A stretch of 64,000 bases of DNA from a virus: positions 64,001-128,000 of IMG/VR virus record IMGVR_UViG_3300046779_000879, one strand, 5' to 3'. Shown piece by piece: positions 5,598 through 44,726 of the stretch. The notes below the pieces were generated by a model. The model was not told the origin of the DNA. It saw only the letters and a list, made by a program, of their open reading frames with translations, and did not search any database. Every line of letters begins with the position of its first letter. The stretch's first letter is position 1. A program made the position numbers and the translations under genes.

Positions 5598-6605
5598 TTA
5601 TTTTAATTTTTCTAACTCTGAATAGATTTGTTCTATCTGTGAGTCATATCTTCTACTATCGTTTTGCTCTATTAAATTAGCATATTCTATAAACAACAAA
5701 TCTTTTCTAAAAGAATCTTCATAATTATTTTTATTATATAAAAGAGTATTCATTCTATCTTTTAGTTTACAAAATTCATATACCAAAGACTCAGCATATT
5801 CACCAATTAGTTTTTTGATTTCTTCCCGTTTAACATTATCACTACCATTATATTGATAATGTTCTGTTCCATATACAGAATGATATAGTCCAGCAGCACA
5901 CACTTCTTTTGTATGTCCTAATTGCTCTAAAAGTAAAGAAACTCTATACAAATGTTCAAAAAATGTTTTTCCAGAATGTTTTAAATCAATGCTTTGTTTA
6001 AAGATAAAATCGACCTCTTCGCTTAAACAAGAATGATCAATAGTTTTAAATACTAATACACTTCTAAGTTCTGGACAAATTCTACTTAATGGTCTAGCAG
6101 AATGAAATTTATTCGAATCAAAAATTAAAACTCTATTTGGTTTTGGTAGTACAGAATATTCTATCTCATTATCAGAATTAAGAATTGTTGTTTCTCCACC
6201 CCAATCTCTATCCCAAGTTTTATTTAAATAAACAATAATAGTTTCTGTCAAAACACTAGAACCAAATTTTTTTAGAATCCAGTTATCATCTACGTGATAA
6301 TATGCATCAGTACCAAAAGTATAACCATTGATATATGATCTTAAAAGACATCGTTTACCAATTTTAGATTGAATAGCCGACCATAATAGATCTACTTCTT
6401 GATGTGATGATATAAAGGGCATAACACTATGATCATAATAATGAAATTTACTGTTGCTTAAAATGTTTTTATTCCAGTGTCCAAAGTCGTAAGATTTATC
6501 AACATTAGACTTTCCACCATAAGTTAATCCACTCTCTACATATCTTGACCTAATATTTGATATTAGGTTATCACATTCATCTAACTGCAATAAAATAGTA
6601 CTCAT
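5598..6605 (-). CDS. 2OG-Fe(II) oxygenase fused to C-terminal HD-like (DUF6817-like) domain
   Basis: YHVD, WDRDWGGET, FHSAR, RSVLVFK; then HSGKTFFEHL...AGLYHSVYGT. Confidence 0.75.
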   Translation of the reverse strand: MSTILLQLDECDNLISNIRSRYVESGLTYGGKSNVDKSYDFGHWNKNILSNSKFHYYDHSVMPFISSHQEVDLLWSAIQSKIGKRCLLRSYINGYTFGTDAYYHVDDNWILKKFGSSVLTETIIVYLNKTWDRDWGGETTILNSDNEIEYSVLPKPNRVLIFDSNKFHSARPLSRICPELRSVLVFKTIDHSCLSEEVDFIFKQSIDLKHSGKTFFEHLYRVSLLLEQLGHTKEVCAAGLYHSVYGTEHYQYNGSDNVKREEIKKLIGEYAESLVYEFCKLKDRMNTLLYNKNNYEDSFRKDLLFIEYANLIEQNDSRRYDSQIEQIYSELEKLK

Positions 6606-7285
6606 AATTGTCTATCCAATTTTTTAATAATTGGGAATACCTCAGCAATAACTTTAGCACATTCAAGTGCAACTATCTGATGTTCTTTTTGTGTACCATT
6701 TGCACTGCGTAATTCAATAAAGTGAATCCAACTACGCAGTGTACCATTCATGTATAAACGACTAACTGTATTGCCTTCTGGTAGAATTGCTCTTGCTTGT
6801 TCTTTAGCAATTCCTTGACCAATCGCCCAGTCATACGTCTTTATTACTAGTGCTAGAATTTCTCTTTGCCTGTGACGCCACTCTTCAGCAATATTCTGTC
6901 CAGCAATGGTGGCTGGTAACTCTACGCTATTTTGACGATTGGTTTCGTCTTGGAGTCTGGCTTCCCTAAGGACAAATGATAAGTCCTTGGTGGGATCTGC
7001 GTAGCGTTGGCTGAATTCTTGAAAACTAAAAGAGCGGTGACGCAAGATTTGTCTTGCGATATCACGAGTAGTTTCTATTTCTAAACACGCACTGACCATT
7101 TCTAATGGTGACCAATGGCTGTGTTTGATAAGATACTTAATTAACTTCTCTGATGTCTCTGTGTTGAACTGGTTGGATGGATTTGATACACGAGCACAAA
7201 AAGCAACTAGCTCTTGTGCGTCAATCAAACCCTCATCATACATTTCATCTGATGGTTTAGAATAACTAATCAATTTCACTTTCAC
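6602..7285 (-). CDS. thyX: flavin-dependent thymidylate synthase
   Basis: HWSPLE, RQILRHRSFSFQEFSQRY signature. Confidence 0.97.
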   Translation of the reverse strand: MKVKLISYSKPSDEMYDEGLIDAQELVAFCARVSNPSNQFNTETSEKLIKYLIKHSHWSPLEMVSACLEIETTRDIARQILRHRSFSFQEFSQRYADPTKDLSFVLREARLQDETNRQNSVELPATIAGQNIAEEWRHRQREILALVIKTYDWAIGQGIAKEQARAILPEGNTVSRLYMNGTLRSWIHFIELRSANGTQKEHQIVALECAKVIAEVFPIIKKLDRQL

Positions 7286-18233: not shown

Positions 18234-19141
18234 ACGATTCTCCAACCATTACGATATATCATCTGTATGGCTCCATTGTTAATTTGAATTATGAAACCAC
18301 CAGCATCGTTATCAACAGTCCCAAGTACGGTAATAGGATTGATTTCTGCGTCGCCATCTTCATCTTTAATGATTAACATTCTACCAGAATTGGCAGATGA
18401 TGGTAGTGTTATTGTTACTGGACCAGCATAGTTCACACCAATGTAGTAGTCACTATCTTGTACTGTATATGTCGGTGTTGTTACTTCAGTTGTATTATAT
18501 ACAACTTCGTATGGATTGATTTCATCAAATACAAATTTCTTGCGAGCACCATCATACTTTAACCAGCGTCCATCTAATATGGTTTCTCTGGCGACATCGT
18601 CAAGGTATCTAAGATTAACTTCACCAGATCCTGGACCAGCATTGTTAATCTTACCGATCCATTGCTCAAGGAATTTAATCTTGTTATTGATTAGTTGAAA
18701 TTCTCTCTGCGAACTATCTTCTTTAGGAGTTTCAAACTGAGGCGACTTTAAGTATTTTTCAATAGAAGGTAAATCAGCAATGGCTGGATGTTGAGTCTCA
18801 GCTGGAACATCTCCAATCGGAGTTGGGAGTGGTTTAGTTTCAATAAGAACTTCCTCAACTAATTGAGGGTTTTCTTGAATGATTTCTTCTTTTCTATTCT
18901 TTAGAGATGCTAGTTCTGCAAATAAAGAATCAAAATCTGTTTTAACATTTTCTTTAATGTCAGATTCTAATTTTCTATTCTTCTGAACGACAGGATCTTT
19001 GTCCTTTAAATGTGACAATTGGGAGAATAATCCTCCCAAGTCTTCTTTAATATTTTCTTTTATCTCTCTATTCTTAACAGCAACAGGATCTTTTTGTTTA
19101 CCCTCTGCCATTAATTTGAGGAAATCATTTAATTCACTCAT
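18230..19141 (-). CDS. hypothetical protein with C-terminal tail-fibre-like repeat
   Basis: GSGEVNLRYLDDV and YYIGVN..TITLP..GRMLIIKDE. Confidence 0.55.
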   Translation of the reverse strand: MSELNDFLKLMAEGKQKDPVAVKNREIKENIKEDLGGLFSQLSHLKDKDPVVQKNRKLESDIKENVKTDFDSLFAELASLKNRKEEIIQENPQLVEEVLIETKPLPTPIGDVPAETQHPAIADLPSIEKYLKSPQFETPKEDSSQREFQLINNKIKFLEQWIGKINNAGPGSGEVNLRYLDDVARETILDGRWLKYDGARKKFVFDEINPYEVVYNTTEVTTPTYTVQDSDYYIGVNYAGPVTITLPSSANSGRMLIIKDEDGDAEINPITVLGTVDNDAGGFIIQINNGAIQMIYRNGWRIV

Positions 19142-20928
19142 TACTTCATCGCTTTTCGTAGGTCATTATACAACGCATCTTTGTGTTCTGGTTTCATCTG
19201 TGAAGATAATGCAGCATGAAATTCTTTCTTCTTACCAGTGGATGCTAACTCTCTTAATTTAGTTCCAGAGATACCAGCTACACCTTTAGCATTCTCGTCA
19301 CGTTGACCAGATGAATGCATGGTGATTGATTTAAAGTTAAAGTGCCCATGAGAAGACTCTTTACCATTATACTTCTTGAGCATCTCAACCATACTCTCAC
19401 GATCTGAACCGCCAACAAAGTGTAGATGTTTAACACCTTTGTTGTATAGATCAACTGCATGGTGAAGGATTGTTGGTTTACTCTTGTCTGCTACTTCAAT
19501 GTTAGTTCCAGGGAATGCATTCTTAGCATGTTTTAACTTCTGCTCTGGACTTAGTGGATTCTTACCATCTTTAGTATTGTGTGAATGAGAAAGAATCAAT
19601 GTATGGTCACCACCAACTTCTTTGGCAGTTTTCTTTAATTGATTAACAACTTGTTCATGTCCAGCAGTTGGAGGATTCATACGACCAAATGCGATGGTAT
19701 GATGTTTCTCGTCTGGCTCTTTGGCTGGAGCACGTGACTTCAATAGATTCTGACGAGCAAATTCTGCACGATTGACCAACTTGGTTGGCTCAGTTGTACC
19801 TTTGTGAGTATGATTGTAAACAAAACCTTCTGGCTTAGAAGCAACACCACCGATGGCATGTTCATAAGATCCTTCGTTGGATTCTAGAGTCTTAACCAAT
19901 TCATTCTTAGCATTGGCTAAGTGACCATGCATCTTTAAAAGATTTTCGTAATGTTCAGCATTCTTTTGAATGTGTTTAACATGACCACTCAACTCAGCAA
20001 GTTTAGCGTTTTGAGACTTCTCAGTTTTAAGTTTACCAATAATCTTTTCGTATTTACCAGCGATGTGTTTTTGTAAACCTTCAGCGGATGGAGTGCTACC
20101 ATCACGAACTGTTTGATTAATGTATGTGCTCAAGTGTCCAGCTTCACCAGAGTGTTCTGGGTGGATGGCATTATACATTTTAGTACCATGCTTTTCGTGA
20201 ATTGTTTTTGCTTTGGATAGTTCTGAAAGAACTTTGTCTTGAGATTCTTGAGGATACTTTGCACCACTGGCATCGTAAGAAGCAGTGTGGTGAAATACGT
20301 GATCGTGTTTACCAAACTCATCATCACTAACATTGCCAGTGGCACGCATACTGCTGAGAGTATTACCTTCGTATTTGGTATGAGTAACTACACCCAACTT
20401 GGCTTTGTGAATTGCTGCAGCTTTGTCGCCATGTGCAGTATAAGTGATAGTGTTTGGAGTGAAGGAAGCAGATCCGCTTTTACCTTTCTTGACATCAGGT
20501 TTAGTAAACATCACGTCACCCTGATAAACACCCTTCTTTGGAGCAACTTTTGGTAAATGCTCAAGACCAGCTTTTAGTTTTTCTACAAGACCTGGAGCAT
20601 GTCCATGATTCTTTTCTACATCTTCAGGTGTGTAGTTTAATTTTGGATTCTTATTGAACGCAGACTTGGAAGCAACAAAGAACTTACCAGTCTCTGGATG
20701 ATGACCATAAACAATAGATGGCGAACCATCGTATTTCATCGTCAACTTGTTGGATTGCTTACCTTGTTTGGTATGGAAGTGTGCACCATGGAGGGCATCG
20801 TATGCATGATGGAAACCTTCTGCTCCGTGGAACAGAGGTCTGTCTTCTGCATGAGTAATGTGCTTGAGTTTAGCACCCTCTTCCTCTACACCTTCGATTA
20901 AAAAATCATTGAATCCTAACACTTTCAT
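19141..20928 (-). CDS. His-rich two-domain protein (N-terminal KYDG domain plus C-terminal cytidylyltransferase-like domain)
   Basis: TMKYDGSP..QGD..EGFV..KLVNR (ligase/capping-type nucleotidyltransferase-like motifs); FGRMNPPTAGH, GSDR, ISGTKLR. Confidence 0.7.
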   Translation of the reverse strand: MKVLGFNDFLIEGVEEEGAKLKHITHAEDRPLFHGAEGFHHAYDALHGAHFHTKQGKQSNKLTMKYDGSPSIVYGHHPETGKFFVASKSAFNKNPKLNYTPEDVEKNHGHAPGLVEKLKAGLEHLPKVAPKKGVYQGDVMFTKPDVKKGKSGSASFTPNTITYTAHGDKAAAIHKAKLGVVTHTKYEGNTLSSMRATGNVSDDEFGKHDHVFHHTASYDASGAKYPQESQDKVLSELSKAKTIHEKHGTKMYNAIHPEHSGEAGHLSTYINQTVRDGSTPSAEGLQKHIAGKYEKIIGKLKTEKSQNAKLAELSGHVKHIQKNAEHYENLLKMHGHLANAKNELVKTLESNEGSYEHAIGGVASKPEGFVYNHTHKGTTEPTKLVNRAEFARQNLLKSRAPAKEPDEKHHTIAFGRMNPPTAGHEQVVNQLKKTAKEVGGDHTLILSHSHNTKDGKNPLSPEQKLKHAKNAFPGTNIEVADKSKPTILHHAVDLYNKGVKHLHFVGGSDRESMVEMLKKYNGKESSHGHFNFKSITMHSSGQRDENAKGVAGISGTKLRELASTGKKKEFHAALSSQMKPEHKDALYNDLRKAMK

Positions 20929-20934
20929 ACCTTT

Positions 20935-20963
20935 ATTATACCCTAATTTGCAATATTTGTCAA
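20935..20963 (-). promoter_or_regulatory. consensus sigma70 promoter
   Basis: Perfect TTGACA-N17-TATAAT. Confidence 0.85.
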
Positions 20964-20970
20964 GCAATAA

Positions 20971-23045: not shown

Positions 23046-23762
23046 TTATTTAGGTCTTCTGGATGCCCTAATAGTTCTTTCGTATTTGCGTTCCCACTTA
23101 CCCACTTGCTGGATAATCTTTTGAATAGCGTGGTTATTACGATAATCGTAATTGAAAGCCTTGAGGATGTAATGGAAGGTATTTGAGTCTCGCTTCGTTT
23201 TGGATCTAGCGAGTAATTCTGACACTGGTACATTTGGTTTAAACATCTTATAGTCTAAAAATATACAATGTGCATATGCTTGAATCTCATCAAACTCTGA
23301 CAGATATCTTCTCTCTGCGTCTTTTTTGACTTGACCTATTTTTTTGTATGGAACAATGTAGTTGCTCCACTCATCATCACGTCTATCGTATTGCATAAAG
23401 TGGATTAATTCATGCATTTCTACTTGAATTAGTTTAAACTTAAACCTTTCCCATGAACGAGGGGTGAATGGGAAAGAGTCGTAGTGTTCAGTGTGAATTT
23501 GTAAAATACACTGTCGAGTTTCTGGATCGTACTCTCCACCTACAGCAACATGTGTCTCAAAGTACTTGGCTTTGGACTTTTCTTTGAACCAAACTACTTT
23601 AGTTCTCCACTTTCTAAAGTAGTTTGATAGACCTTTGGAATCGTTGCGATACTTGTCTAGGTCTACCCATATTTTCGCAGGGTTGAACTTAGCCCTAAAT
23701 GGACGCTCGTAAAAATTGAGCATTTCCATCCAGTCATAGTTTGATTGTTCTAGGAATTTCAT
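23046..23762 (-). CDS. putative zincin metallopeptidase
   Basis: MHELIHFMQ (HExxH) with downstream EIQAYA. Confidence 0.6.
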   Translation of the reverse strand: MKFLEQSNYDWMEMLNFYERPFRAKFNPAKIWVDLDKYRNDSKGLSNYFRKWRTKVVWFKEKSKAKYFETHVAVGGEYDPETRQCILQIHTEHYDSFPFTPRSWERFKFKLIQVEMHELIHFMQYDRRDDEWSNYIVPYKKIGQVKKDAERRYLSEFDEIQAYAHCIFLDYKMFKPNVPVSELLARSKTKRDSNTFHYILKAFNYDYRNNHAIQKIIQQVGKWERKYERTIRASRRPK

Positions 23763-23782: not shown

Positions 23783-24388
23783 TTACCCTAATTGACCCTC
23801 TAAAAAGGTTAGAACTTTCCCCTGCTCCTCTAAGTTAGTGTTTGCAAACTCAGTAATATAGGACATCAATTCGAAATTAGATAATAGATTACTATATTTA
23901 GTCTCTCGCCCTCTTAGGAATTGTTCAGATTGGTCTGAACCACGATCAATATAACGCTGTTCTAGGATCTCTTTAGGTGCTTTGAGATAGACAATCTGTA
24001 GGTCGGTATTCGGTAGACCCATACAGAACTCTAGGAATGACTGATTAAAAACTCGATCTCCTTCGAAAAGAATGTTACAGTTATGCGTCTGGATCCACTC
24101 TTGTAGGTTCGGCTGGACTGCCATCGAAAGGCGATCTGTTCCAGCGAATGTTTCGCCATCTTCATACTTACCTAGAATGTAAAGATCTCGCTCTGTATTA
24201 TATGAAGCTGAAACTAACTTGGCAGGTTCAGTGGCAATCCACTGCTTGTTTTCCATAAACTTACGGAACAACGTAGTCTTGCCAGTTCCAGGTGAACCAC
24301 CAACTGCGATAATCTTTCTAGTCTTCATAGGTTTAGTAATTTTCTGAACAGTAATGGTATCTAAAACACCAAGTTTTTCATTAAGCAT
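23783..24388 (-). CDS. P-loop nucleotide kinase, 5-hydroxymethyluracil-DNA kinase-like
   Basis: GGSPGTGKTT Walker A, LGKY..GTDRLS, FEGDR; gene context. Confidence 0.8.
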   Translation of the reverse strand: MLNEKLGVLDTITVQKITKPMKTRKIIAVGGSPGTGKTTLFRKFMENKQWIATEPAKLVSASYNTERDLYILGKYEDGETFAGTDRLSMAVQPNLQEWIQTHNCNILFEGDRVFNQSFLEFCMGLPNTDLQIVYLKAPKEILEQRYIDRGSDQSEQFLRGRETKYSNLLSNFELMSYITEFANTNLEEQGKVLTFLEGQLG

Positions 24389-24767
24389 GTTTCGCTTCCT
24401 CAAGTAATTTCTTTAGCTCATCTTCTGTAAATACCCATACACGACCAATAAAGTGATGTACGTCTGCATCGACATCTCGTTTCTTAGTGAAAGATGTTTT
24501 TTTAATTATCTCTCTTGCAAGATTGCGAGACAAGTTTTCTTTAATCTCATCTGCATATGTTGGAACAGTATCTTTAAGTTTCATCAACTCAAACTCTGTA
24601 ACTTTATGCTCAACAGTCAGAAGATTTAACTCATGTCGTTCCATCAAATCTTCTACAGCAGTTGGTGGTACAGATATCGTTCCATAAGTTGTAGCAGAGG
24701 TTTTGATAGATCCAACAGTCAGTGAATCAATAGGTGTAGTAATAGGTGTAGTAATAGTAGTAATCAT
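24381..24767 (-). CDS. hypothetical protein inside the modification operon
   Basis: Overlaps both neighbours. Confidence 0.6.
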   Translation of the reverse strand: MITTITTPITTPIDSLTVGSIKTSATTYGTISVPPTAVEDLMERHELNLLTVEHKVTEFELMKLKDTVPTYADEIKENLSRNLAREIIKKTSFTKKRDVDADVHHFIGRVWVFTEDELKKLLEEAKHA

Positions 24768-25783
24768 GCGAACATCTCCAATCCATTTAATATAGGTTCT
24801 TCATCATCGAACAGCCACTCTAGATTTTCTAGACGACCTGTTCTTACAAAACTTGAAAATCTTTCTTTATCAATACCACGTTTGTGGTCTAAACGCAAGT
24901 CAATTGTTTCTTCTCTAGCTTGCCATAAAACATTCCAGTCAATACCATACCATCCATCGGACTCAGCTTTGATAATTTCTTCTGCTTGTCTATCAAGATA
25001 GTATCCAAGATACCTTCCGTGATTCTCTCTAAAGATTTTCTTAAAAGAACACAGACAGGTTTCCATGGTAAAGTAATCTATACTCGATGAGAGTTCTGGA
25101 AATCTCGCTTTCGTCTCTGCAAGAATCTCTTTGGCTTGTGACTCAAGATTTCCATACTCTGATGCAGTGAGTTTTCTATCCACACTGTCTTCTTGTCCGA
25201 TGGCATAAAGTAATCCATTACGATGAGAGCGAGAGCCATCATAATCGTCCAGCATGAGAGAAGTAGGATTGATCCGAACACCAGCGGTATGCTTAAGATG
25301 CTGAAGATAAAACCAAGTACTGTAACGACCAAACTTATGCAAGCCAGACTTAACGCTTTGCCACAAGTTATCAAAGTTCGCTTCCTCATTGTGTCCATAG
25401 TAACTTTCCAATCTCTCTCGTTGTGTTCTTCCACCAATAAATTGTTGATAAGATGCGAACATGGCTGGAAGATGTCCCTTGTTCCATTTTGTGTCAGTCT
25501 GATAACGCAGACGTTTGTAGTTGGTTGTGTTCCACTGAGTGGTTCTGTCCACTGTGGCAAGTTCAAAGTCAGGAAACTCATTCATTAATACCCATGCAGT
25601 TGGGAGTTGATATGTGTTACCATATAACCAGCATAACCAAAGTTTCTGCTCATCATTATGTTCATATCGTTTGTTGAGATAGTTCGTACACCAAACTGCT
25701 GGATCGCAGTCATCATACTTTAATGACCACACATACCAACGAATGAACGCTTCCCTACGATTTTGTTCTAAGCGATAATCCAT
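24764..25783 (-). CDS. alpha-glutamyl/putrescinyl thymine pyrophosphorylase clade 2 (amino acid:DNA transferase)
   Basis: DCDP, FGRYSTWFYLQ HhH-like motif, ETCLCSFKK, GRYLGYYLDR. Confidence 0.8.
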   Translation of the reverse strand: MDYRLEQNRREAFIRWYVWSLKYDDCDPAVWCTNYLNKRYEHNDEQKLWLCWLYGNTYQLPTAWVLMNEFPDFELATVDRTTQWNTTNYKRLRYQTDTKWNKGHLPAMFASYQQFIGGRTQRERLESYYGHNEEANFDNLWQSVKSGLHKFGRYSTWFYLQHLKHTAGVRINPTSLMLDDYDGSRSHRNGLLYAIGQEDSVDRKLTASEYGNLESQAKEILAETKARFPELSSSIDYFTMETCLCSFKKIFRENHGRYLGYYLDRQAEEIIKAESDGWYGIDWNVLWQAREETIDLRLDHKRGIDKERFSSFVRTGRLENLEWLFDDEEPILNGLEMFA

Positions 25784-26424
25784 TATACTAAAAATTCTTC
25801 AAGCGAGGGTTGTTCCATTAATGCATCACGCAACCATGCTTTACCGACAGCGTCAATTGCTGCTTGCGTTTTTGCTTTCTTTTTGTCTCCCCACTTATAT
25901 GTTTCTAATGCTTCCGAACGGAATTGATCTCTTGCCTTATAAGGTGGCAGAGCCGAGATTGGATTTGCGATAGCAGCAGCTCTAAATGCGAGTTGCTCAT
26001 TACGAGTGGGGAATAGAGTTTGGTCAGAGCGGAGACTACCTGTGGGGTCAACTGCCCAGAAGATGAGACCATTTCTGTAATGCCAAGTGACTGAAGATGG
26101 CGTACAAGATATTTTAAGTCTTTTAGATTTTCGCTCTTCAACTGCATACCTAATCCAAGATTCCCAACATTTGCTGGCATATCCATTTCCCTCTTTCCCT
26201 TCCAACGTGACTATTTCATACAAATTGGCATATCCATCACGATTGTGTGTGGCAAAAATTAAAGAAACAACTTCTCCATTAACTTCATACGCAAGCGGAG
26301 GTGCTTTGTCATAGTTATGAAAGCGATACCACAATGAATGTGCAGCCGATAAGAACTTGGTGTTCTTACCAGCTGGACTAGTTTTAATTAACTCTTCAAC
26401 TCTCGTTGAATTAACAAAGTTCAT
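25783..26424 (-). CDS. GNAT acetyltransferase
   Basis: NLYEIVTLEGKEGNGYAS acetyl-CoA motif A; WHYRNGL. Confidence 0.75.
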   Translation of the reverse strand: MNFVNSTRVEELIKTSPAGKNTKFLSAAHSLWYRFHNYDKAPPLAYEVNGEVVSLIFATHNRDGYANLYEIVTLEGKEGNGYASKCWESWIRYAVEERKSKRLKISCTPSSVTWHYRNGLIFWAVDPTGSLRSDQTLFPTRNEQLAFRAAAIANPISALPPYKARDQFRSEALETYKWGDKKKAKTQAAIDAVGKAWLRDALMEQPSLEEFLV

Positions 26425-27103
26425 ATTGTAAGTCCACCGCATCTTCAATGACTTCTTTTTCAATAGTCATTGCGAGTTGGTCATCAAATGTAATGTAATG
26501 ATTCATCAAAGTATGAATCGGCAATCCTGGAACTTCTGCTCGTTTTGGAACATCAGCAGTAGAAGTAATTATACAACCATTTGAGATATTTGTCAAGTAT
26601 AATGGACGCTTACCATTGCGATAGAATCTAATAACTTTATCAACATGCAACTCAATTACTGCAAGACTAGAATCTTTCCAACGAACCAATGGACTAATAC
26701 AATCTTCTGCCGTATGCAAAATCAATTCAGTATCGTTTTTAGTTTCGCAATCATATCCATAGAGTTCTTTCCATTTCTCAGGCAACTCTTGAGTAATAAC
26801 TCCATTGTGGACTACCGAAAGATTCTCATTGGCGATGGGTTGATTGAATTCTAAGTCACTGGTACTATAGCGACAGTGACCAATTAGATAAAGACTACCA
26901 TCTTCATTGACATAACTCGGAAAGTTAAATGGAAATTGATCGGCAGGTACTGGTCGCTTCTCAGTGATAATCTTTCCATGTTTAACATAGGAGATTCCAG
27001 TGGCATGCATCCCTCGAATCTTAGACTCAAGGAACACACGATGAAGCATTAAGAAATCCTCGGCACGAGGTTCTTTAATAATTGCTCCAATGACTGAACA
27101 CAT
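26411..27103 (-). CDS. stand-alone class II glutamine amidotransferase / Ntn hydrolase
   Basis: N-terminal MC, RGMHATG, GHCRYST, NQP, HNGVI, NDTE. Confidence 0.88.
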   Translation of the reverse strand: MCSVIGAIIKEPRAEDFLMLHRVFLESKIRGMHATGISYVKHGKIITEKRPVPADQFPFNFPSYVNEDGSLYLIGHCRYSTSDLEFNQPIANENLSVVHNGVITQELPEKWKELYGYDCETKNDTELILHTAEDCISPLVRWKDSSLAVIELHVDKVIRFYRNGKRPLYLTNISNGCIITSTADVPKRAEVPGLPIHTLMNHYITFDDQLAMTIEKEVIEDAVDLQYELC

Positions 27104-28428
27104 TAGAAGAATCCTTCAAGTGAGTTTGACTTTTGCGATTCTGGATGATACTTCATCAATGTATCGTGTCCAAGTTTACTCTCAAGATATTCATACCACT
27201 CATCAGATTCCCACATTGAAGGGCTGACACCATTCCAAAGATGTCGCTGAGAACCATCTTCATATTTTTGATCTGGGTGTTCTTTGTTAAGTCTGCGTTG
27301 TTCAACAAAGTCATAACGGCAGTCTTCGTATTGTTTAGAACCCAACTCAAGCATTTTCTCACGGAAGTAAACAACCAATGAGATTCGTTCTGCTTCTTCA
27401 TCAAGCAATTCAATCTGAGTATTGCCATGCATAACTTCATGGTTGTTAATTAGTAGCAAATCTCCAGGTCTTGGATTGACAGCAACACGATACTCTGGTG
27501 CAACAAGATAACATCCTTTGTAGTTACCATTGTTTGTTAGAGTCAACAGATTTGATAGACCAGAAGTTAAGTCACCTGCATCGTAGTGACATGCAGTTCT
27601 GAAAGATTTATTAACTGTAATAGTAGTAAATGGAGTTCCAGGAACTAAGAATGCAGGATCTAGTTTCTTTGCTGCTTCCATTTGATTATTGTATCTCCAT
27701 GGCAACAAGTCTTTGAAACCTTGCGCAAGTTGCTGGAGGAATGGATATGACATGGCAAACTTTACTGGCTCACGAGCAGTATAAGATGTTGCACGACCAT
27801 AAGGAATGCGAGGATAACGATCGAACCATCCAGCAATACCAGACATAACACCATTGGCATAGGTAGTTGCACAAACATATGCTTTCTCTACTCGTCTGGC
27901 TTCAGCAATCATTTCAGATGCATCTAATTTACGAACTTTCTCGACCCATTCATTGAAGACAAAATTGTCTTTCTTAACTGCTTGAATACCCCAAACATTA
28001 TTTCGTGTAGATGGTTTGTCAGTCTTACCTTGATGTTTGGCTTTAATGGCTTCAATTGGATCTCCATCCAAAGATGCTTTTGGGTTTAAGAAGTAGTCAA
28101 TGATTTCTGATTCATATTCAGTGACCCATTCACGATTACCCAATTTCTCTGCTCTTGGACCTGCAGCCATACCTCTGTTTTGAGTTTCAGTTGCAGCCTC
28201 ACGCAAACCAATGTATGCTTGATCTTGTTGTTCCTTTGTAAAATAATTCTTACGGAACTTCAGAACAATCCTTTCTTCAGAGTATGTCAACTCTGGATGT
28301 CCAGGAATTTCTGGCATATAAACATCACAGTCCTCTTCAATGAGGAAATCATAATGAGACTCATCAGGAAATTGTCCCAACATATGAGTCATATCATGTT
28401 TCTGTTTTGCTACGATTACCTTAGTCAT
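27103..28428 (-). CDS. TET/JBP-family 2OG-Fe(II) DNA pyrimidine dioxygenase
   Basis: FTTITVN..TACHYDAGD (HxD), MHGNT (H), ERISLVVYFRE (R). Confidence 0.85.
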   Translation of the reverse strand: MTKVIVAKQKHDMTHMLGQFPDESHYDFLIEEDCDVYMPEIPGHPELTYSEERIVLKFRKNYFTKEQQDQAYIGLREAATETQNRGMAAGPRAEKLGNREWVTEYESEIIDYFLNPKASLDGDPIEAIKAKHQGKTDKPSTRNNVWGIQAVKKDNFVFNEWVEKVRKLDASEMIAEARRVEKAYVCATTYANGVMSGIAGWFDRYPRIPYGRATSYTAREPVKFAMSYPFLQQLAQGFKDLLPWRYNNQMEAAKKLDPAFLVPGTPFTTITVNKSFRTACHYDAGDLTSGLSNLLTLTNNGNYKGCYLVAPEYRVAVNPRPGDLLLINNHEVMHGNTQIELLDEEAERISLVVYFREKMLELGSKQYEDCRYDFVEQRRLNKEHPDQKYEDGSQRHLWNGVSPSMWESDEWYEYLESKLGHDTLMKYHPESQKSNSLEGFF

Positions 28429-28436
28429 ATTCTCTC

Positions 28437-29837
28437 CTAAAACTTAAATCCATTAAAACTCTCTGTACTATGTATGCGTTTGCCAAAAGCAGATTTATCA
28501 AACATTGGACCATCATCTTTATCTTGACCAGCATCAGACAAACCAGTCTGTGCAGACGCTTCAACATCATAGAGTTTCATCTTTGCTCTATCAATCCCAA
28601 TTACGAATCTCTTGTAGAAACTTGGATCGTTATAACGATTCTTTAATTGCTTAACGATAATCTGATTTAACTCCTCAAGTTCTTCGTTGCTGACCAAAGC
28701 AAACATAAAGTCAGCAGTTGCAGGCAGACCAAAAGATTCAGATGTATCTTCAAGTCCTGGATCGCTGTTAGTGAAACCACCACGAGTAGTTTGAGTGGCA
28801 GATACAATTGGAACATTATACTCAACTGCTAGACCACGCAACTCTTCAGCAATGCTCTTAATATATGTATAAGAGTTAATACTTCCACCTTGTTTCATTC
28901 TTTGACTCGCACAAATATTCAAATAGTCAATAAAAATAATATCAGGTCTAAACTCTTTCTTCAATTTCAATTCTTCCAACAAAGCACGGAAGTGACCAGC
29001 ATGAGCACCAGCAGTTGGATACTCTTTGATGATAAACTTACCTGTACTCTTTTTGGCGATCTTATCAATTCTAGTTTCGTAAATATCTCTATCAATAACC
29101 TTCAACTCGTCCATGGTCAGATTTAACAGATTCGCATCAACACGTTCAGCGATTCGTTCTTCTGCCATTTCCATAGTTATGTATAAGGCATTTTTACCCT
29201 GCGTCAAAACTCCTGCAGCCATGTGACACATGAACAATGATTTGCCAACACCAGTACCAGCCAATGCGATGTTTAGGGTTTTCTTTGAAAGTCCACCCTT
29301 GGTGATTTTATTGAACATGTCAAGGTCGAAAGGAATCTTCTCTTCAACCCTGTGATAAAAATCAAACCTCGCATGATGGTCATCGATGTAGTCATGACCA
29401 ATGTGATTATCAAAAGAAACAGCCAGTGCGTCAGATAGAATAGAAGGAATCGCATCTTTAGAATTTACCTTATCACCACCATCAATAATTTTAATCGAAC
29501 CTAAGATGGCATTATAAACGGCACGATCCTTACAAAACTTCTCAGTGTTCTCAAGCATCCAGTCTTCGTTGACTGGTTCATGAGACATTGTGTTGATATA
29601 CTCAGTTAGTTCAGATAATTCTTTATCTGTAAGATCCTTACGATTCGAAACTTCAATCGTAAGAATTTCTTTTGTGGCTGGTTTGTTGTACTTGCTGAAG
29701 AAGTCTACAAGTTCGTTTGCTAGGATTGCTTCTTTTTTATCCGAGAAGTATTCTCGTTTGATAAATGGGATTACCTTACGGCAGTACTGCTCATCATAAA
29801 TCAGATTGCTCAGAATTTTTTGTTCTATTCTCATCAA
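28437..29837 (-). CDS. 41: replicative helicase gp41
   Basis: AGTGVGKS, IDYLN, SATQTTR, QLKNRY. Confidence 0.97.
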   Translation of the reverse strand: MMRIEQKILSNLIYDEQYCRKVIPFIKREYFSDKKEAILANELVDFFSKYNKPATKEILTIEVSNRKDLTDKELSELTEYINTMSHEPVNEDWMLENTEKFCKDRAVYNAILGSIKIIDGGDKVNSKDAIPSILSDALAVSFDNHIGHDYIDDHHARFDFYHRVEEKIPFDLDMFNKITKGGLSKKTLNIALAGTGVGKSLFMCHMAAGVLTQGKNALYITMEMAEERIAERVDANLLNLTMDELKVIDRDIYETRIDKIAKKSTGKFIIKEYPTAGAHAGHFRALLEELKLKKEFRPDIIFIDYLNICASQRMKQGGSINSYTYIKSIAEELRGLAVEYNVPIVSATQTTRGGFTNSDPGLEDTSESFGLPATADFMFALVSNEELEELNQIIVKQLKNRYNDPSFYKRFVIGIDRAKMKLYDVEASAQTGLSDAGQDKDDGPMFDKSAFGKRIHSTESFNGFKF

Positions 29838-30126
29838 CTCCGCCTGTGTATGTCAAATTATTTCGTTCAATACCTTCATAGATTAACTCTTGTAGAATAT
29901 CTCCAATATATTGCTCGAATGATGCTTTATCGGTTAAATCTTTATCATCGTCATCAATGATATCATATTCGAAACGAAGATGAATATTATCAGTTGTTTC
30001 ATTTTCATCGAATTGAACTTTACCGTAAGTATAGATTATACCCTCAAAAGCACCTTCTGTCAACTTTATTGCTTGGAGTCCATCTTGTTTAGAATCCAAC
30101 ACAACGTAACGTGGGTTACTCATCAA
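29794..30126 (-). CDS. conserved T4-like hypothetical protein
   Basis: GIIYTYGKV..YIGDIL; lies between uvsX and 41. Confidence 0.65.
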   Translation of the reverse strand: MMSNPRYVVLDSKQDGLQAIKLTEGAFEGIIYTYGKVQFDENETTDNIHLRFEYDIIDDDDKDLTDKASFEQYIGDILQELIYEGIERNNLTYTGGVDENRTKNSEQSDL

Positions 30127-31250: not shown

Positions 31251-33737
31251 TTATCCAAAGAAATCTTCCAATGAACTTTCTTCTTGTGTCTTCCAACCCA
31301 GTGGTTCAATAACAATTTGTAGAGCATCCAAGAATACTTTCTCAAACTGTTTGTCATAATCTATGTATGATTCCAATCCAAACTCCTTTGGAAGAACTTG
31401 AGGGAATGCAATAACATCTTCTTGAAGTGGGTTTGGTGTCTTAACATAAACGAATTTAATCTTGTCACCATCACGAATAGGTTGATACCTTTTATCAATA
31501 CCGAATCGTTTGCAGTGATGATTGAATAATAAAGCACCACGAACATGAATCGGTGTTCCTTTGGCATACACTGGCGAACCAGCATACTGTTTGATACCAT
31601 TGACACCACGAGGGAATGCAATCTCTTCAACAGGAAGTTTCTCGAACTCTTTCTTAAAGTCCATAACATACTTATGCAGAACTTTTTGGTCACCGAGCAG
31701 AATGACATCAATGGAGTCTTTTAGTTTGTCACGAATCACTGCAGGTGTAGATGACTTGACCATTTCAAGACCCATCACCTTGACTTTAGGTTTTGCAAAC
31801 TGGACACCCTCAGAGTTATGCACATTGATAACATATCGCTTCTTAGCAGTCCAGATGGCTTTGTCGGCTAGAACTTCTCGCTTCATTACCATCTTTTGCG
31901 AATACGCATTCATGTACTCGGCTAGTTCTTGATAACCAGTATCAATAAATGGCTGAAAAATATCTTCACATATCTTGTCCATGAATTTGATTTTCTCTTC
32001 AGTGGACTTTCCAGCACAAACTTTTTCAACAAGATCTTCCAATGTAAGATAGATTGAGTCAGTGTCAATCGCAACAACAAAGTCTTTACCCTCTGACTTG
32101 AGAGTTTTGTTGAGGAATGCATTCAACTTGTTGGCCATCCAACGAATGGACAACTGACCAGAAGTCGTAATACCTTCAGCCATACGAATATCAAAGTAAC
32201 GGAAGTATTGATTACCCATCGCACCGTAAGCAGAGTTCAAAGCAATCTTCATCGCCATCTGCAGGTTGTTCAAACGAGAGATATCTTTCAACAGATGTTT
32301 CTTACTTTTGTCGTTTTGATACTCTTGCTCAACCTTCAACATCTGCTTTTTAAACTTGGAGCGGTTCGCATACATCTGTTCCATCAACTCAGGCATGAAA
32401 CCTTTGACGTCTTTGCGATACGTCCAACCATTGGCAGTCAATGCCAAATCTCTACGCTTTGCATATGAAGTATCAATCTCTTGATTGAGTAACTTATCAA
32501 CTGTCACAGAAATCTTTTCGCTTGTGAGAGTTTCAGGGCTGATGTTGTACTGCATAATCAAGTGAGGATACAGAGAGTTCAAGTCAAAGGATGCCATCCA
32601 TTTGTGAAGTCCGATGATTGGATCCTTCACATAAGCACCTTCGAACTGAGCATCTTTACCAGAGAAAGACTTGGATGGAATGACAATACCTTTCTTACGC
32701 AGGTGATTGTAAATGATAGTATCCCACATACGAACCTGCGAGTAAACATCTTCAGGATTAATCTTGGCATTGTATGCCATAGTCAGATGCAGTTCAAGCA
32801 GACGCATCTTATCTTCTAGTTGGTCAACCAACTCTACGTCATGAATGTTATACTCAACGAACTGTTGCCAGTAATTTGTGTAGAAGTCTTTGAAGTCAAC
32901 TCCAGGATTCTCTTTCTTTTTGTCGCCTAGTTCTTCTTGTGCAATGTAATCCAGACGATATGATTCTTGTTTTGTGTATGTGTATTTCTTATAGAGTTCT
33001 AGGTAGTCAAGCTGATTGATACCCATGATATCGTAGTGAAGTTCTTCATTACCTTTGATGAATGTCTTACGTTCAAGAACATTACCCCATGGACTCATCT
33101 TGTTGGCAAAAGTATCACCCAACTCACGAGAGATCCTACGAATGAGATAAGGCATATCGAAGAAGTCAGTATTCCAGCCAGTGATGCAGTCTGGATAATT
33201 CTGTTGCCAGAAAATCATAAACTCTTTAAGCAAATGAAGTTCGTCATTACAACGAACATACTTAACATCTTTACGATCTGTATGAAACTCTTTTGAACCA
33301 AAGGTGATGATGCTCTTTGTTTGGAGATCTTTGATTGTAATTAGGAGAATCTGCTCATTGGCAGTTTTGGTATCAGGGAATCCATTCTCAGTTTCAGTTT
33401 CAATGTCAATGGTGAATACTTTGACTTGTTCCATATCCCAGTTGACATCGTCTTCATAGGTGTCACTGATATATTGATATGCGTAATTGGTGTTACCGTA
33501 AACAGGAAATCCTTCGACATCTTCGTATCGTTTAACAAAGTCTTTTGTTTCTTTGATACTTCCAGGTTTAATTTCATCTACGTAAGTACCTTCCAATGTC
33601 TTCCAATCAGAAGACTTATTAGAAGTGACATACAGCGTAGGATAGAAATCTACCTTACGCTGATATTGTCTGCCCTTATCGTAACCTCGAACGAGGATCT
33701 TGTCACCCCATGCATGGGCTGATGTGTAAAATTCCAT
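31251..33737 (-). CDS. 43: family B DNA polymerase gp43
   Basis: DIET exonuclease, SFDLNSLYP, KIALNSAYG, DTDS, KKRY. Confidence 0.98.
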   Translation of the reverse strand: MEFYTSAHAWGDKILVRGYDKGRQYQRKVDFYPTLYVTSNKSSDWKTLEGTYVDEIKPGSIKETKDFVKRYEDVEGFPVYGNTNYAYQYISDTYEDDVNWDMEQVKVFTIDIETETENGFPDTKTANEQILLITIKDLQTKSIITFGSKEFHTDRKDVKYVRCNDELHLLKEFMIFWQQNYPDCITGWNTDFFDMPYLIRRISRELGDTFANKMSPWGNVLERKTFIKGNEELHYDIMGINQLDYLELYKKYTYTKQESYRLDYIAQEELGDKKKENPGVDFKDFYTNYWQQFVEYNIHDVELVDQLEDKMRLLELHLTMAYNAKINPEDVYSQVRMWDTIIYNHLRKKGIVIPSKSFSGKDAQFEGAYVKDPIIGLHKWMASFDLNSLYPHLIMQYNISPETLTSEKISVTVDKLLNQEIDTSYAKRRDLALTANGWTYRKDVKGFMPELMEQMYANRSKFKKQMLKVEQEYQNDKSKKHLLKDISRLNNLQMAMKIALNSAYGAMGNQYFRYFDIRMAEGITTSGQLSIRWMANKLNAFLNKTLKSEGKDFVVAIDTDSIYLTLEDLVEKVCAGKSTEEKIKFMDKICEDIFQPFIDTGYQELAEYMNAYSQKMVMKREVLADKAIWTAKKRYVINVHNSEGVQFAKPKVKVMGLEMVKSSTPAVIRDKLKDSIDVILLGDQKVLHKYVMDFKKEFEKLPVEEIAFPRGVNGIKQYAGSPVYAKGTPIHVRGALLFNHHCKRFGIDKRYQPIRDGDKIKFVYVKTPNPLQEDVIAFPQVLPKEFGLESYIDYDKQFEKVFLDALQIVIEPLGWKTQEESSLEDFFG

Positions 33738-44025: not shown

Positions 44026-44685
44026 TTAGAATTCAAATGTAGAATCAGCTTCTACTGCAACATAATATACCAAGTCACTAGATGGAGATTTAAAACGAGA
44101 GATTTTCTTACTTGAAATTGATACTTCATAATCGCCTGGAAGCATCTTTAGGTTTTCTACTTTCAGATTAACTTTGAATGTCTTATCAGTAGCACCGACA
44201 GATTCGCTGAAAGAGTTGCCAGTGGCATTCTTCTTGTCACCAACAACTGCGGTAATCTTACTACCATCACCAACGATTGATACGTCAGATGCACGCAGAA
44301 CAGATGCAGTCTTATTAATCATATTCAACATCGCAGCAGACATCGTGAAGTTGATTTCTGCTTCAGGAAATGTAATCGCTTTTTGCGGTGCGACCAATAC
44401 AGATGCGTCTGCAGCAAAGAACTTAATCTTCATACTACCTTGACTAATTGATACATACTTGTCTTGGAAGTCTAATTCAGGATCGTCAAACAAAGACATA
44501 GCACCCAAGAACTCATTGAGATCGTAGATTCCAAAGTCAGGGAATGTTTCTGTTACTGTCGCATCAGCCATCACGTTTTTCTGTGATGAGATTGTTGCAA
44601 GTTTGTTGCCACTCTTTAAAAGCAGATTACTGTTAATGCCAGCAAAGTTTTTAATTAGGGCAGTGGTTTCTTTACTAAGTTTCAT
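44026..44685 (-). CDS. 45: sliding clamp gp45
   Basis: KNFAGINSN, FGIYDLNEFL, YYVAVE. Confidence 0.95.
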   Translation of the reverse strand: MKLSKETTALIKNFAGINSNLLLKSGNKLATISSQKNVMADATVTETFPDFGIYDLNEFLGAMSLFDDPELDFQDKYVSISQGSMKIKFFAADASVLVAPQKAITFPEAEINFTMSAAMLNMINKTASVLRASDVSIVGDGSKITAVVGDKKNATGNSFSESVGATDKTFKVNLKVENLKMLPGDYEVSISSKKISRFKSPSSDLVYYVAVEADSTFEF

Positions 44686-44726
44686 TACTTTCTCCATTCA
44701 AATGATTACATTACTATGTATAAAAC

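Follow-up and report, generated by a model that had tools for sequence, protein, structure and literature searches.

A probable post-replicative thymine hypermodification cassette in an uncultured T4-like phage

The locus at positions 23783–28428 of the window (a stretch of 64,000 nucleotides, positions 64,001 to 128,000 of IMG/VR record IMGVR_UViG_3300046779_000879) is, judged from its sequence, very probably a thymine hypermodification cassette; it lies in the genome of an uncultured T4-like phage (163.6 kb, 100% complete by CheckV). We consider it reasonably probable that the cassette modifies thymidine after replication through a five-step pathway: the phage would replicate with ordinary dTTP, as its ThyX suggests; a long-form TET/JBP dioxygenase would oxidize thymine in the polymer to 5-hydroxymethyluracil (5hmU), as its family, fold, catalytic residues and genome context suggest; a P-loop kinase would phosphorylate the hydroxymethyl group to give 5-phosphomethyl-dU, as homology to PaMx11 gp49 suggests; Cys245 of an amino acid:DNA transferase (AADT) would add to C6, expelling the phosphate and exposing an exocyclic methylene, and the nucleophile would probably be ammonia, not a free amino acid, giving 5-aminomethyl-dU; and a GNAT enzyme would N-acylate the new primary amine, with 5-acetamidomethyl-dU as the likely product. 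The likely purpose is to shield the phage DNA from host nucleases.

The six open reading frames, each confirmed at its coordinates, all lie on the minus strand: the dioxygenase (27103–28428), a glutamine amidotransferase (GATase; 26411–27103), the GNAT enzyme (25783–26463, with the likely start at the ATG at 26424), the AADT (24764–25783), a conserved 128-residue protein (orf128; 24381–24767) and the kinase (23783–24403, with the likely start at the ATG at 24388). The sequence-only reading had described six genes with overlapping stop/start junctions directly downstream of a gp41-type helicase, and they read as described: the dioxygenase/GATase and GNAT/AADT junctions are TAATG; the AADT/orf128 junction is ATGA; GATase and GNAT overlap by 14 nt and orf128 and kinase by 8 nt; and 8 nt separate the dioxygenase ATG from the stop of the DnaB/gp41-type replicative helicase immediately upstream (28437–29837, minus strand; phrog_19, 4.9e-128; DnaB_C, 2.3e-19). 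That reading had also depended on the genes staying together in relatives. The order helicase, dioxygenase, GATase, GNAT, AADT, orf128, kinase recurs in virtually all of 80 IMG/VR metavirome contigs that reach far enough, across which the dioxygenase is 77–98% identical, and the arrangement is therefore not due to chance.

Family, motif and fold evidence verified the earlier assignments of all five enzymes. The dioxygenase (441 residues, C-terminal tail NSLEGFF) matches Pfam Tet_JBP with 92.9 bits (cut-off 34.9; E 1.6e-26); its residues H281, D283 and H334 do not vary among 36 homologues, and R348 hardly does; and its AF2 model (pLDDT 93.5) has human TET2 as top structural match (Z 20.7, rmsd 3.3, 259 residues aligned, model range 1–373), followed by CMD1, CcTet and NgTET1. 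The kinase and the AADT, on whose family matches the earlier proposal hinged, both match. The kinase, a probable 5hmU DNA kinase (5-HMUDK) of 201 residues counted from the ATG (23783–24388), carries the Walker A motif GSPGTGKT, matches Ploopntkinase3 with 28.6 bits (cut-off 27; E 1.2e-6) and is homologous (E 6e-8; 24% identity over 166 aa) to PaMx11 gp49, a demonstrated 5-hmdU DNA kinase (PMC8989533). It also matches phrog_800 (4.7e-14), whose label “terminase small subunit” is likewise the label of PaMx11 gp49 and M6 gp54 in their records.

The AADT (339 residues, tail NGLEMFA), a clade-2 enzyme of the type formerly called aGPT-Pplase2, matches Pfam ADDT with 84.1 bits (cut-off 26.2; E 1.6e-23) and shares 28% identity over 346 aa (E 5e-29) with an Ackermannviridae AADT whose annotation places it in clade 2. 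Its E241, C245 and K248 recur unchanged in M6 gp51, PaMx11 gp46 and the homologue from Caulobacter phage Cr30; M6 gp51 and ViI gp247, the two enzymes for which the cysteine-addition and phosphate-expulsion mechanism is established, both require the conserved Glu and Cys (PMC8989533). The GATase is a stand-alone class II (Ntn) glutamine amidotransferase domain of 230 residues (GATase_6, 4.1e-10; GATase_7, 8.9e-6), with weaker matches to AsnB, PurF and GlmS models; all 28 non-redundant orthologues retain its Cys2, and alignment with the GlmS glutaminase domain shows the CRYST, HNG and DTE positions to be kept. The GNAT enzyme (25783–26424; 213 residues, tail PSLEEFLV) is marginal by Pfam (Acetyltransf_1, 21.2 bits; cut-off 20.7), and its modelled fold confirms the assignment: the top Foldseek PDB matches shown for the AF2 model (pLDDT 76) are all GNAT-fold at probability 1.0, and most are N-acetyltransferases such as SpeG and PA4794. 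G76, G79 and G81 are invariant among 32 homologues; of 548 homologues in total, the matches listed are at least 78% identical.

Three of these enzymes, the dioxygenase, the GNAT and the AADT, share one type of short acidic-aromatic C-terminal tail with the phage's family B DNA polymerase (gp43 type; 31251–33737, minus strand; DNA_pol_B, 4.7e-27; tail SSLEDFFG), and for that reason they are probably recruited to newly made DNA by the gp45-type sliding clamp, the proposed docking platform (a 223-residue ORF at 44026–44697, minus strand; gp45-slide_C, 8.9e-11; DNA_PPF, 1.4e-4). We know of no DNA base-modifying enzyme that uses a gp45-binding motif. The pattern [SGA]L[ED]xF, defined after the tails had been seen, occurs six times in the predicted proteome (52,026 residues), and in four cases it lies at an extreme C-terminus (polymerase, dioxygenase, AADT and GNAT), where about 0.1 would be expected by chance for this post hoc motif. 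The tails are kept in 79 dioxygenase, 63 GNAT and 48 AADT orthologues, and persist where the protein bodies have diverged; such a tail also ends about 18 of the 26 longer TET representatives listed (345–477 aa) and is absent from the short forms of about 300 aa. In T4, the gp43 tail EKASLDFLFG, likewise a short Leu-acidic-x-aromatic peptide at the extreme C-terminus, mediates gp45 binding, as does a ligase loop with LDFLF, and a gp45-binding motif of the LDFLF type is present in gp33 as well (PMC6212786).

On this likeness of sequence we rate clamp tethering of the three enzymes as an even chance. The tail could instead contact another replisome protein, serve as a degradation or assembly signal, or be a by-product of recombination between neighboring genes, as might be suspected of a motif chosen post hoc and of a module in which aromatic C-termini are common, the gp41 helicase orthologues ending in a different one, SFEGFKF. 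We regard these explanations as somewhat unlikely: the tail differs little from that of the phage's own polymerase and resembles the gp45-binding tail of T4 gp43 (PMC6212786), it has been kept while the bodies diverged, and its occurrences are concentrated at extreme C-termini.

The identity of the nucleophile is suggested by a predicted complex of the AADT and the GATase, which scored ipSAE 0.90, 0.89 and 0.91 in three runs with shallow alignments, against 0.00 for the best control, the score being a measure of model confidence; 58 of 80 solved complexes and 2 of 110 mismatched pairs attain the scoring mark. Partner pLDDT is at least 90, and contacts agree between runs to at least 91%. To our knowledge, no AADT–amidotransferase complex has been solved. 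On the GATase side the modelled interface comprises residues 1, 28–33, 79–81 and 101–107—i.e. the catalytic Cys end, the Arg30 loop, the glutamine-binding loop and the oxyanion-hole segment—so that the active-site face of the GATase is predicted to dock on the AADT, and this pairing suggests glutamine-derived ammonia as the nucleophile. In such an arrangement the docked amidotransferase would free ammonia from glutamine at the AADT; ammonia transfer, for which the complex model and chemical logic argue, no ATP-dependent acceptor enzyme having been recognized in the cassette, is probably the fourth step. The sequence-only reading had assigned tailoring to both the Ntn hydrolase and the GNAT; the Ntn protein, by the complex model, looks less like a late tailoring enzyme than like an ammonia-supplying partner of the AADT. 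The ammonia route together with an acetamidomethyl product is a tentative proposal, to which we give slightly less than even weight.

An amino-acid nucleophile could still serve, because the closest characterized AADT type by sequence (ViI gp247, 28% identity) uses serine. The AADT would then transfer a free amino acid (M6 glycine, ViI serine or SP10 glutamate type) or glutamine itself, the Ntn protein, as an amidohydrolase, would next trim a γ-glutamyl or amide group, and the GNAT would acetylate the remaining amine; the final base would be an amino-acid-derived adduct and may be new. Ntn enzymes of the GATase fold can be amidohydrolases, e.g. EgtC, and the glutamine-binding residues of the GATase would hold a glutamyl moiety equally well; moreover, all biochemically characterized clade-2 AADTs use an amino acid or a polyamine (PMC8989533). 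However, the enzymes that process such adducts in known pathways (PLP decarboxylase, radical SAM and flavin enzymes) were not recognized in the cassette by family searches; the amidotransferase matches GATase_6/7, AsnB, PurF and GlmS types; and in the model its active-site face lies buried on the AADT, which would suit ammonia hand-over better than reaching a base in duplex DNA. We therefore consider transfer of an amino acid unlikely.

The phage encodes its own dTMP supply, a ThyX flavin-dependent thymidylate synthase (6602–7285, minus strand; Thy1, 4.2e-45), and a search of the whole genome gave no DNA_methylase (C5), Thymidylat_synt or ParB_N match at E 0.1 or better; because ThyX is present, and a C5-methylase, a dUMP hydroxymethylase and ParB were not detected, thymine rather than 5-methylcytosine (5mC) is, from genome context, the likely substrate. 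The same context supports the earlier proposal that a TET/JBP enzyme feeds the kinase/transferase route; its statement that characterized phage TETs oxidize 5mC has been superseded by the reconstitution of phage thymine dioxygenases (O'Toole et al. 2026, PMC13229309). That the dioxygenase acts on 5mC, or lays a low-level, sequence-specific epigenetic-type mark, with the downstream enzymes modifying 5hmC instead of 5hmU, is highly improbable: clade A and B phage TETs do oxidize 5mC and P-loop kinases also adjoin C5-methyltransferase/TET pairs (Burke et al. 2021, PMC8256090), and characterized thymine dioxygenases modify only part of the thymines, with a sequence preference (PMC13229309), but no C5 cytosine methyltransferase domain was found in this complete genome, AADTs and 5-HMUDKs have been characterized on 5hmU only (PMC8989533), and a C5-methyltransferase is present in only 6% of mined 5mYOX pathways (PMC13229309).

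Cassettes of this kind are already published, and the earlier reading overstated the novelty, the gene combination not being new as a neighborhood: TET_JBP beside a 5-HMUDK and an AADT, and separately glutaminotransferase-type genes without assigned function in 5-HMUDK/AADT contigs, were reported by Lee et al. 2021 (PMC8989533), and O'Toole et al. 2026 (PMC13229309) associated one phage thymine dioxygenase clade, C1, with GATases, kinases and AADTs; neither paper describes the role of the GATase or the product. In the published metavirome 5mYOX clusters (PMC8989533 Fig. 2 sequences 22–25; PMC13229309 clade C1), as here, TET_JBP replaces the dUMP hydroxymethylase and adjoins a P-loop kinase and a clade-2 AADT, with no C5-methyltransferase nearby; the sources are again IMG/VR-type metaviromes, and the surveys also note helicase and polymerase neighbors. 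The present dioxygenase differs in being a long form of 441 residues whose C-terminal tail resembles that of the polymerase, characterized enzymes having about 290–300 aa, and its genome has no detectable counterpart of the ParB-like activator that characterizes the published clade C1 clusters. Counting against the proposed activity, most TETs of clades C1, C2 and D were inactive in E. coli (PMC8256090), and a subset of clade C1 members without ParB had no detectable activity on 5mC or T (PMC13229309); in this phage, recruitment by the gp45 clamp would replace the ParB activator that other phage thymine dioxygenases need.

PaMx11 (gp46 AADT, gp47 flavin lyase, gp48 acetyltransferase, gp49 5-HMUDK) also groups kinase, AADT and acetyltransferase in one cluster, and its enzymes make the product proposed here, 5-acetamidomethyl-dU (5-acetylaminomethyl-dU), in vitro via glycine transfer and the flavin lyase (PMC8989533). 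Its 5hmU comes from a dUMP hydroxymethylase instead of a DNA dioxygenase, and in the place of its lyase the present cassette has the Ntn amidotransferase, with no flavin enzyme recognized. The AADTs share the Glu/Cys motif and no pairwise similarity beyond it, and the GNAT has no pairwise sequence similarity to gp48. The pathway of Salmonella phage ViI (Ackermannviridae), whose serine:DNA transferase gp247 represents the closest AADT type, uses a nucleotide-level hydroxymethylase, serine, 5-HMUDKs and a PLP decarboxylase and, unlike the present one, has no dioxygenase, amidotransferase or GNAT. Among the phage collection searched, the cultured T4-like phage Cr30 has homologues of the dioxygenase (46% identity), AADT (28%) and kinase (39%) within about 9 kb, dispersed among hypothetical genes, unlike the compact cassette; tblastn found no GATase or GNAT homologue in Cr30, and we are aware of no study of DNA modification in this phage. 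In trypanosomes, as proposed here, a TET/JBP enzyme (JBP1/2) oxidizes DNA thymine to 5hmU and a second enzyme decorates it; base J is, however, a glucoside made by a glycosyltransferase, in place of the phosphorylation and amine substitution that we propose.

Two further proteins accompany these enzymes. A 238-residue protein (23046–23762, minus strand), starting 20 nt after the kinase stop, is at the same position in relatives (61–91% identity); profile searches gave it no family and the ESM Atlas returned viral hypothetical clusters only, and its membership in the cassette is uncertain. Searches of Pfam, NCBIfam, PHROGs, PDB profiles and the ESM Atlas returned nothing for orf128, which is translationally coupled on both sides; it too keeps its position in relatives (44–84% identity), with a hypervariable, Thr/Ser/Gly-rich N-terminal stretch of 45 residues and a conserved C-terminal stretch of 85 residues.

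Our analysis identifies the six minus-strand genes at 23783-28428 as another thymidine hypermodification cassette of a kind already published, and a very abundant one; two testable mechanistic hypotheses, an ammonia route and clamp tethering, can be attached to it. Lee et al. 2021 established the 5-HMUDK, the amino acid:DNA transferase (AADT) and several tailoring enzymes, and reconstituted the PaMx11 route to 5-acetylaminomethyl-dU (PMC8989533); phage thymine dioxygenases have also been reconstituted, one subclass of which requires a ParB-like activator, and the ParB-requiring clade is said to show a consistent association with GATases, P-loop kinases and AADTs (O'Toole et al. 2026, PMC13229309). 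Because these two papers describe it, the enzyme combination is a published kind of neighbourhood; the sequence-only reading, which had taken a TET/JBP enzyme to feed a kinase/transferase route and, knowing of no biochemical characterisation of this combination, had held that it might make a new base or reach a known one by a new route, is supported in its families, motifs and context but overstated the novelty. The literature searched yielded no paper on a characterised product of this type of enzyme combination. TET/JBP-kinase-aGPT-Pplase systems were reportedly first predicted computationally by Iyer et al. in 2013.

The cassette encodes, all on the minus strand, a TET/JBP dioxygenase (27103-28428, 441 aa), an Ntn amidotransferase (GATase; 26411-27103, 230 aa), a GNAT (ORF 25783-26463, likely start ATG 26424, 213 aa), an AADT (24764-25783, 339 aa), a protein termed orf128 (24381-24767, 128 aa) and a kinase (ORF 23783-24403, likely start ATG 24388, 201 aa). 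TAATG occurs at two of the junctions and ATGA at one, and the other two are overlaps of 14 and 8 nt; the first cassette ATG lies 8 nt past the stop of a DnaB/gp41-type helicase gene directly upstream, which UvsX and a family B polymerase precede; and a 238-aa ORF (23046-23762) begins 20 nt past the last cassette stop. ORF coordinates, junction reads and family matches bear out the earlier picture of six overlapping minus-strand ORFs behind a gp41-type helicase, and the assignments proposed at that stage for TET/JBP, Ntn-GATase, GNAT, AADT and kinase hold on the scores, motifs and fold given below. The source IMG/VR record, of which the window covers bases 64001-128000, is 163.6 kb long and rated 100% complete. 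Two perfect σ70 consensus promoters (TTGACA, 17 nt, TATAAT; 12/12) occur on the minus strand: one at 26568-26596, within the GATase gene and ~150 nt before the GNAT gene begins, and one at 30035-30063, ahead of the helicase gene. Of 71 related loci, 57 retain a TTGACA-N16-18-TAnAAT site within the GATase gene, though it overlaps conserved codons, and 33 of 53 retain a site upstream of the helicase.

The fourth protein is, by family match and catalytic residues, a clade-2 amino acid:DNA transferase: it matches Pfam PF18724 (ADDT) at 84.1 bits (cut-off 26.2) over profile positions 18-231 of 232; an Ackermannviridae AADT with a clade-2 annotation shares 28% identity with it (E 5e-29); and E241, C245 and K248 are invariant in its alignment with an Ackermannviridae AADT, with the AADTs M6 gp51 and PaMx11 gp46, and with the homologue from Caulobacter phage Cr30. 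The Glu/Cys pair matching E241 and C245 is essential by mutagenesis in M6 gp51 and in another AADT, ViI gp247 (PMC8989533). Pairwise comparison with PaMx11 gp46 gave nothing significant beyond the catalytic motif.

The kinase lies just above the Ploopntkinase3 cut-off (28.6 bits vs. 27, a marginal match), and aligns with PaMx11 gp49, a demonstrated 5-hmdU DNA kinase, at E 6e-8 over 166 aa and with M6 gp54 at E 0.002 over the P-loop only; from this homology and the gene context, we infer that the last cassette gene encodes a 5hmU DNA kinase. PaMx11 gp49 (NC_028770.1 39217-39786) and M6 gp54 (NC_007809.1 41685-42248) carry the RefSeq label “terminase small subunit” despite demonstrated 5-hmdU DNA kinase activity; phrog_800, which the kinase of the window matches, is labelled likewise, and many mycobacteriophage homologues are named adenylate kinase or terminase small subunit.

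Between the AADT and the kinase, orf128 combines a hypervariable, Thr/Ser/Gly-rich head with a conserved 85-residue tail domain. Neither orf128 nor the 238-aa downstream protein was placed in a family by Pfam at E 5, NCBIfam, PHROGs or ESM Atlas, nor was orf128 by a PDB profile search, and relaxing the Pfam threshold to E 5 gave no match for the unassigned neighbours of the cassette in general. The ESM Atlas matches of orf128 (Baculo_F-type, score 0.92) look like coiled-coil noise and were rejected. A 608-aa protein encoded three genes downstream of the cassette (19141-20967, minus strand) matches DUF6267 strongly (1.1e-92), has a weak cytidylyltransferase-like region after that match, and is kept in relatives.

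Judged by its sequence, the product of 26411-27103 is a stand-alone class II (Ntn) glutamine amidotransferase domain. It matches GATase_6 at 40.2 bits (cut-off 27), also GATase_7, and more weakly the AsnB, PurF and GlmS models; it begins Met-Cys, with the catalytic Cys2, N-terminal once Met is removed, present in 28 of 28 non-redundant orthologues; and alignment to the GlmS glutaminase domain shows that the glutamine-binding and oxyanion residues (R78/T81, N100-G101 and D124) are kept. In GlmS, PurF and AsnB, the active-site face of the glutaminase is turned to the synthase domain. Complex prediction supports binding of the GATase to the AADT in a comparable orientation, with its active-site face towards the AADT: the modelled pair gave ipSAE values of 0.90, 0.89 and 0.91 in three runs (best of three controls, 0.00), the partners had pLDDT values of 90 or more, the runs had 91% or more of their contacts in common, and the GATase interface residues (1, 28-33, 79-81 and 101-107) lie around the active site. 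Of 80 solved complexes, 58 reach the mark used for such predictions, as do 2 of 110 mismatched pairs; these counts are only rough with custom alignments.

The third protein is predicted to be a GNAT-fold N-acyltransferase. Its Pfam match is marginal (21.2 bits vs. a cut-off of 20.7); its AF2 model has a pLDDT of 76; the top Foldseek PDB matches shown are all GNAT-fold proteins (probability 1.0, TM by target 0.5-0.66), mostly N-acetyltransferases with polyamine acetyltransferases first; and G76, G79 and G81 of the acyl-CoA pyrophosphate-binding loop are invariant. It showed no significant pairwise similarity to PaMx11 gp48, and a tblastn search with it against cultured phages gave no match.

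These assignments suggest a pathway whose first three steps, drawn from homology, would be conversion of T to 5hmU, phosphorylation, and Cys-mediated loss of the phosphate. Ammonia from glutamine hydrolysis by the GATase would then attack the methylene intermediate bound to the AADT to give 5-aminomethyl-dU, and the GNAT would acetylate this to the PaMx11 base, without glycine or a flavin lyase. The AADT-bound intermediate is the putative ammonia acceptor because a stand-alone glutaminase needs an electrophile and no other is available in the cassette; no ATP-dependent ligase was recognised among its proteins. The proposed route would differ from the PaMx11 pathway, which has a flavin-dependent glycinylthymine lyase (gp47 type) and a dUMP hydroxymethylase: the cassette proteins matched no flavin-enzyme family, and the genome has no Thymidylat_synt-type gene. 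The alternative is that an amino acid serves as the nucleophile and is later trimmed by the Ntn enzyme; the closest characterised AADT does use serine, but the predicted docking of the glutaminase on the AADT suggests ammonia rather than an amino acid or a polyamine.

A second feature may link three of these enzymes to the replisome. The polymerase ends in SSLEDFFG, the dioxygenase in NSLEGFF, the GNAT in PSLEEFLV and the AADT in NGLEMFA; the predicted proteome (52,026 residues) contains six instances of the motif [SGA]L[ED]xF, of which four lie at an extreme C-terminus vs. 0.1 expected, and the four carriers are exactly these proteins. The tails are retained in 79 TET, 63 GNAT and 48 AADT orthologues, and about 18 of the 26 longer dioxygenase representatives listed (345-477 aa) have one, while the 300-aa short forms have none. 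Binding to the gp45 clamp is known in T4 for the tail of gp43 (EKASLDFLFG) and for a ligase loop that contains LDFLF (PMC6212786); the extreme C-terminal Leu-acidic-x-aromatic peptides found here resemble that of gp43 and are candidate clamp-binding tails. The phage analysed here encodes a gp45 sliding clamp (44026-44697). Clamp tethering would explain how a dioxygenase without ParB is retained on DNA; the tail could also serve a partner other than the clamp. The orthologues of the gp41-type helicase (28437-29837, minus strand, in the window; L005-L084 among related loci) have a conserved aromatic tail, SFEGFKF or SFDGFKF, and most kinase orthologues have FLExxFKM-like tails; both resemble the polymerase-type tail and are not identical to it.

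The TET/JBP protein matches Pfam PF12851 (Tet_JBP) at 92.9 bits (cut-off 34.9) over residues 229-357, and among 36 homologues, down to ~30% identity, the iron triad H281, D283 and H334 is invariant and the 2-oxoglutarate-binding R348 nearly so. Its AF2 model (pLDDT 93.5) adopts a predicted TET-type double-stranded β-helix fold, with human TET2 as the best structural match (Z 20.7, rmsd 3.3, 259 aligned, model range 1-373), followed by CMD1 (Z 18.4), CcTet (Z 17.8) and NgTET1 (Z 17.1), and with generic AlkB-type oxygenases scoring no higher than Z 13. A fused ParB-like activator was considered for the N-terminal 175 residues, which have no Pfam match, and rejected: residues 1-373 align with TET2, CMD1 and NgTET1 as one domain, and since the structural alignment spans them, the N-terminal residues belong to the TET-type domain rather than to a fused accessory module.

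Across the whole genome, the C5 cytosine methyltransferase, ThyA/hydroxymethylase (Thymidylat_synt) and ParB_N families have no match, for ParB_N at E ≤0.1 in a six-frame search of all 163.6 kb, which a very divergent ParB may escape. The phage differs from those with ParB-dependent T-dioxygenases in having no detectable ParB-like activator. ThyX is encoded and the C5-methyltransferase and ThyA-type families are without a match, so the phage makes dTMP and lacks its own 5mC or 5hm-dUMP route; moreover, the gene for a DNA-level 5-methylpyrimidine oxidase adjoins genes for enzymes characterised only on 5hmU in DNA. From this context, we infer that the substrate is thymine in DNA, converted to 5hmU. 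Activity on 5mC is unlikely, the methyltransferase being missing from the genome. Earlier work found no activity in E. coli for most TETs of clades C1, C2 and D (PMC8256090), and some clade C1 members without ParB had no detectable activity (PMC13229309).

Taken together, ammonia transfer and clamp tethering would amount to a replisome-coupled line of glutamine-dependent DNA amination, in which gp45, replacing ParB, brings the dioxygenase, the GNAT, and the AADT with the Ntn glutaminase bound to it onto nascent DNA; the AADT, once an amino-acid transferase, would now serve as synthase subunit of a new amidotransferase, which would transfer ammonia from glutamine to 5-phosphomethyl-dU, yielding 5-(acetyl)aminomethyl-dU by an undescribed route. 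We offer this composite scheme tentatively, as possible rather than probable. If both parts were true, the cassette would represent a new kind of amidotransferase and, to our knowledge, the first case of base-modifying enzymes riding a replication clamp. The cassette could also settle the role of the glutamine amidotransferase genes, whose “functions [were] not yet known” in the 2021 survey. Thymidine hypermodifications protect phage DNA against the nucleases of restriction and CRISPR systems, and they are a source of DNA-labelling enzymes, and transfer of this compact, ParB-free pathway from ordinary thymine into E. coli should be feasible.

The lineage is abundant in metaviromes: dioxygenase relatives are encoded in 320 IMG/VR stretches, and 548 GNAT homologues were found. 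The best 80 of the 320 (dioxygenase identity 77-98%) preserve the order helicase-TET-GATase-GNAT-AADT-orf128-kinase-238-aa ORF as far as each contig extends. A 203-aa 2OG-FeII_Oxy_5 oxygenase gene is inserted between dioxygenase and GATase in some related loci (L011:1676-2287, also L010, L059, L077 and L081), and a 242-aa gene without a Pfam match between GNAT and AADT in others (L027:5332-6060, also L028, L029, L038, L040, L042, L044 and L057). These insertions in a subset of contigs show the cassette to be modular, and further oxidation of the product may occur in some relatives. More distant long-form dioxygenases (38-45% identity) have other, unrelated genes around them and no AADT or kinase, so the cassette is specific to the nearer clade; a nucleotide search with it among 50,697 phage records gave no match.

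The cultured Caulobacter phage Cr30 has dioxygenase, AADT and kinase homologues spread over 9 kb and differs in having neither GATase nor GNAT. In its locus (L002, KF301602.1 51383-68681), hypothetical genes and an annotated inositol-1-phosphate synthase gene separate the three homologues, an arrangement that may indicate a different thymine adduct there, and the dioxygenase carries the apparently mistaken annotation “SNF2 DNA repair protein”.
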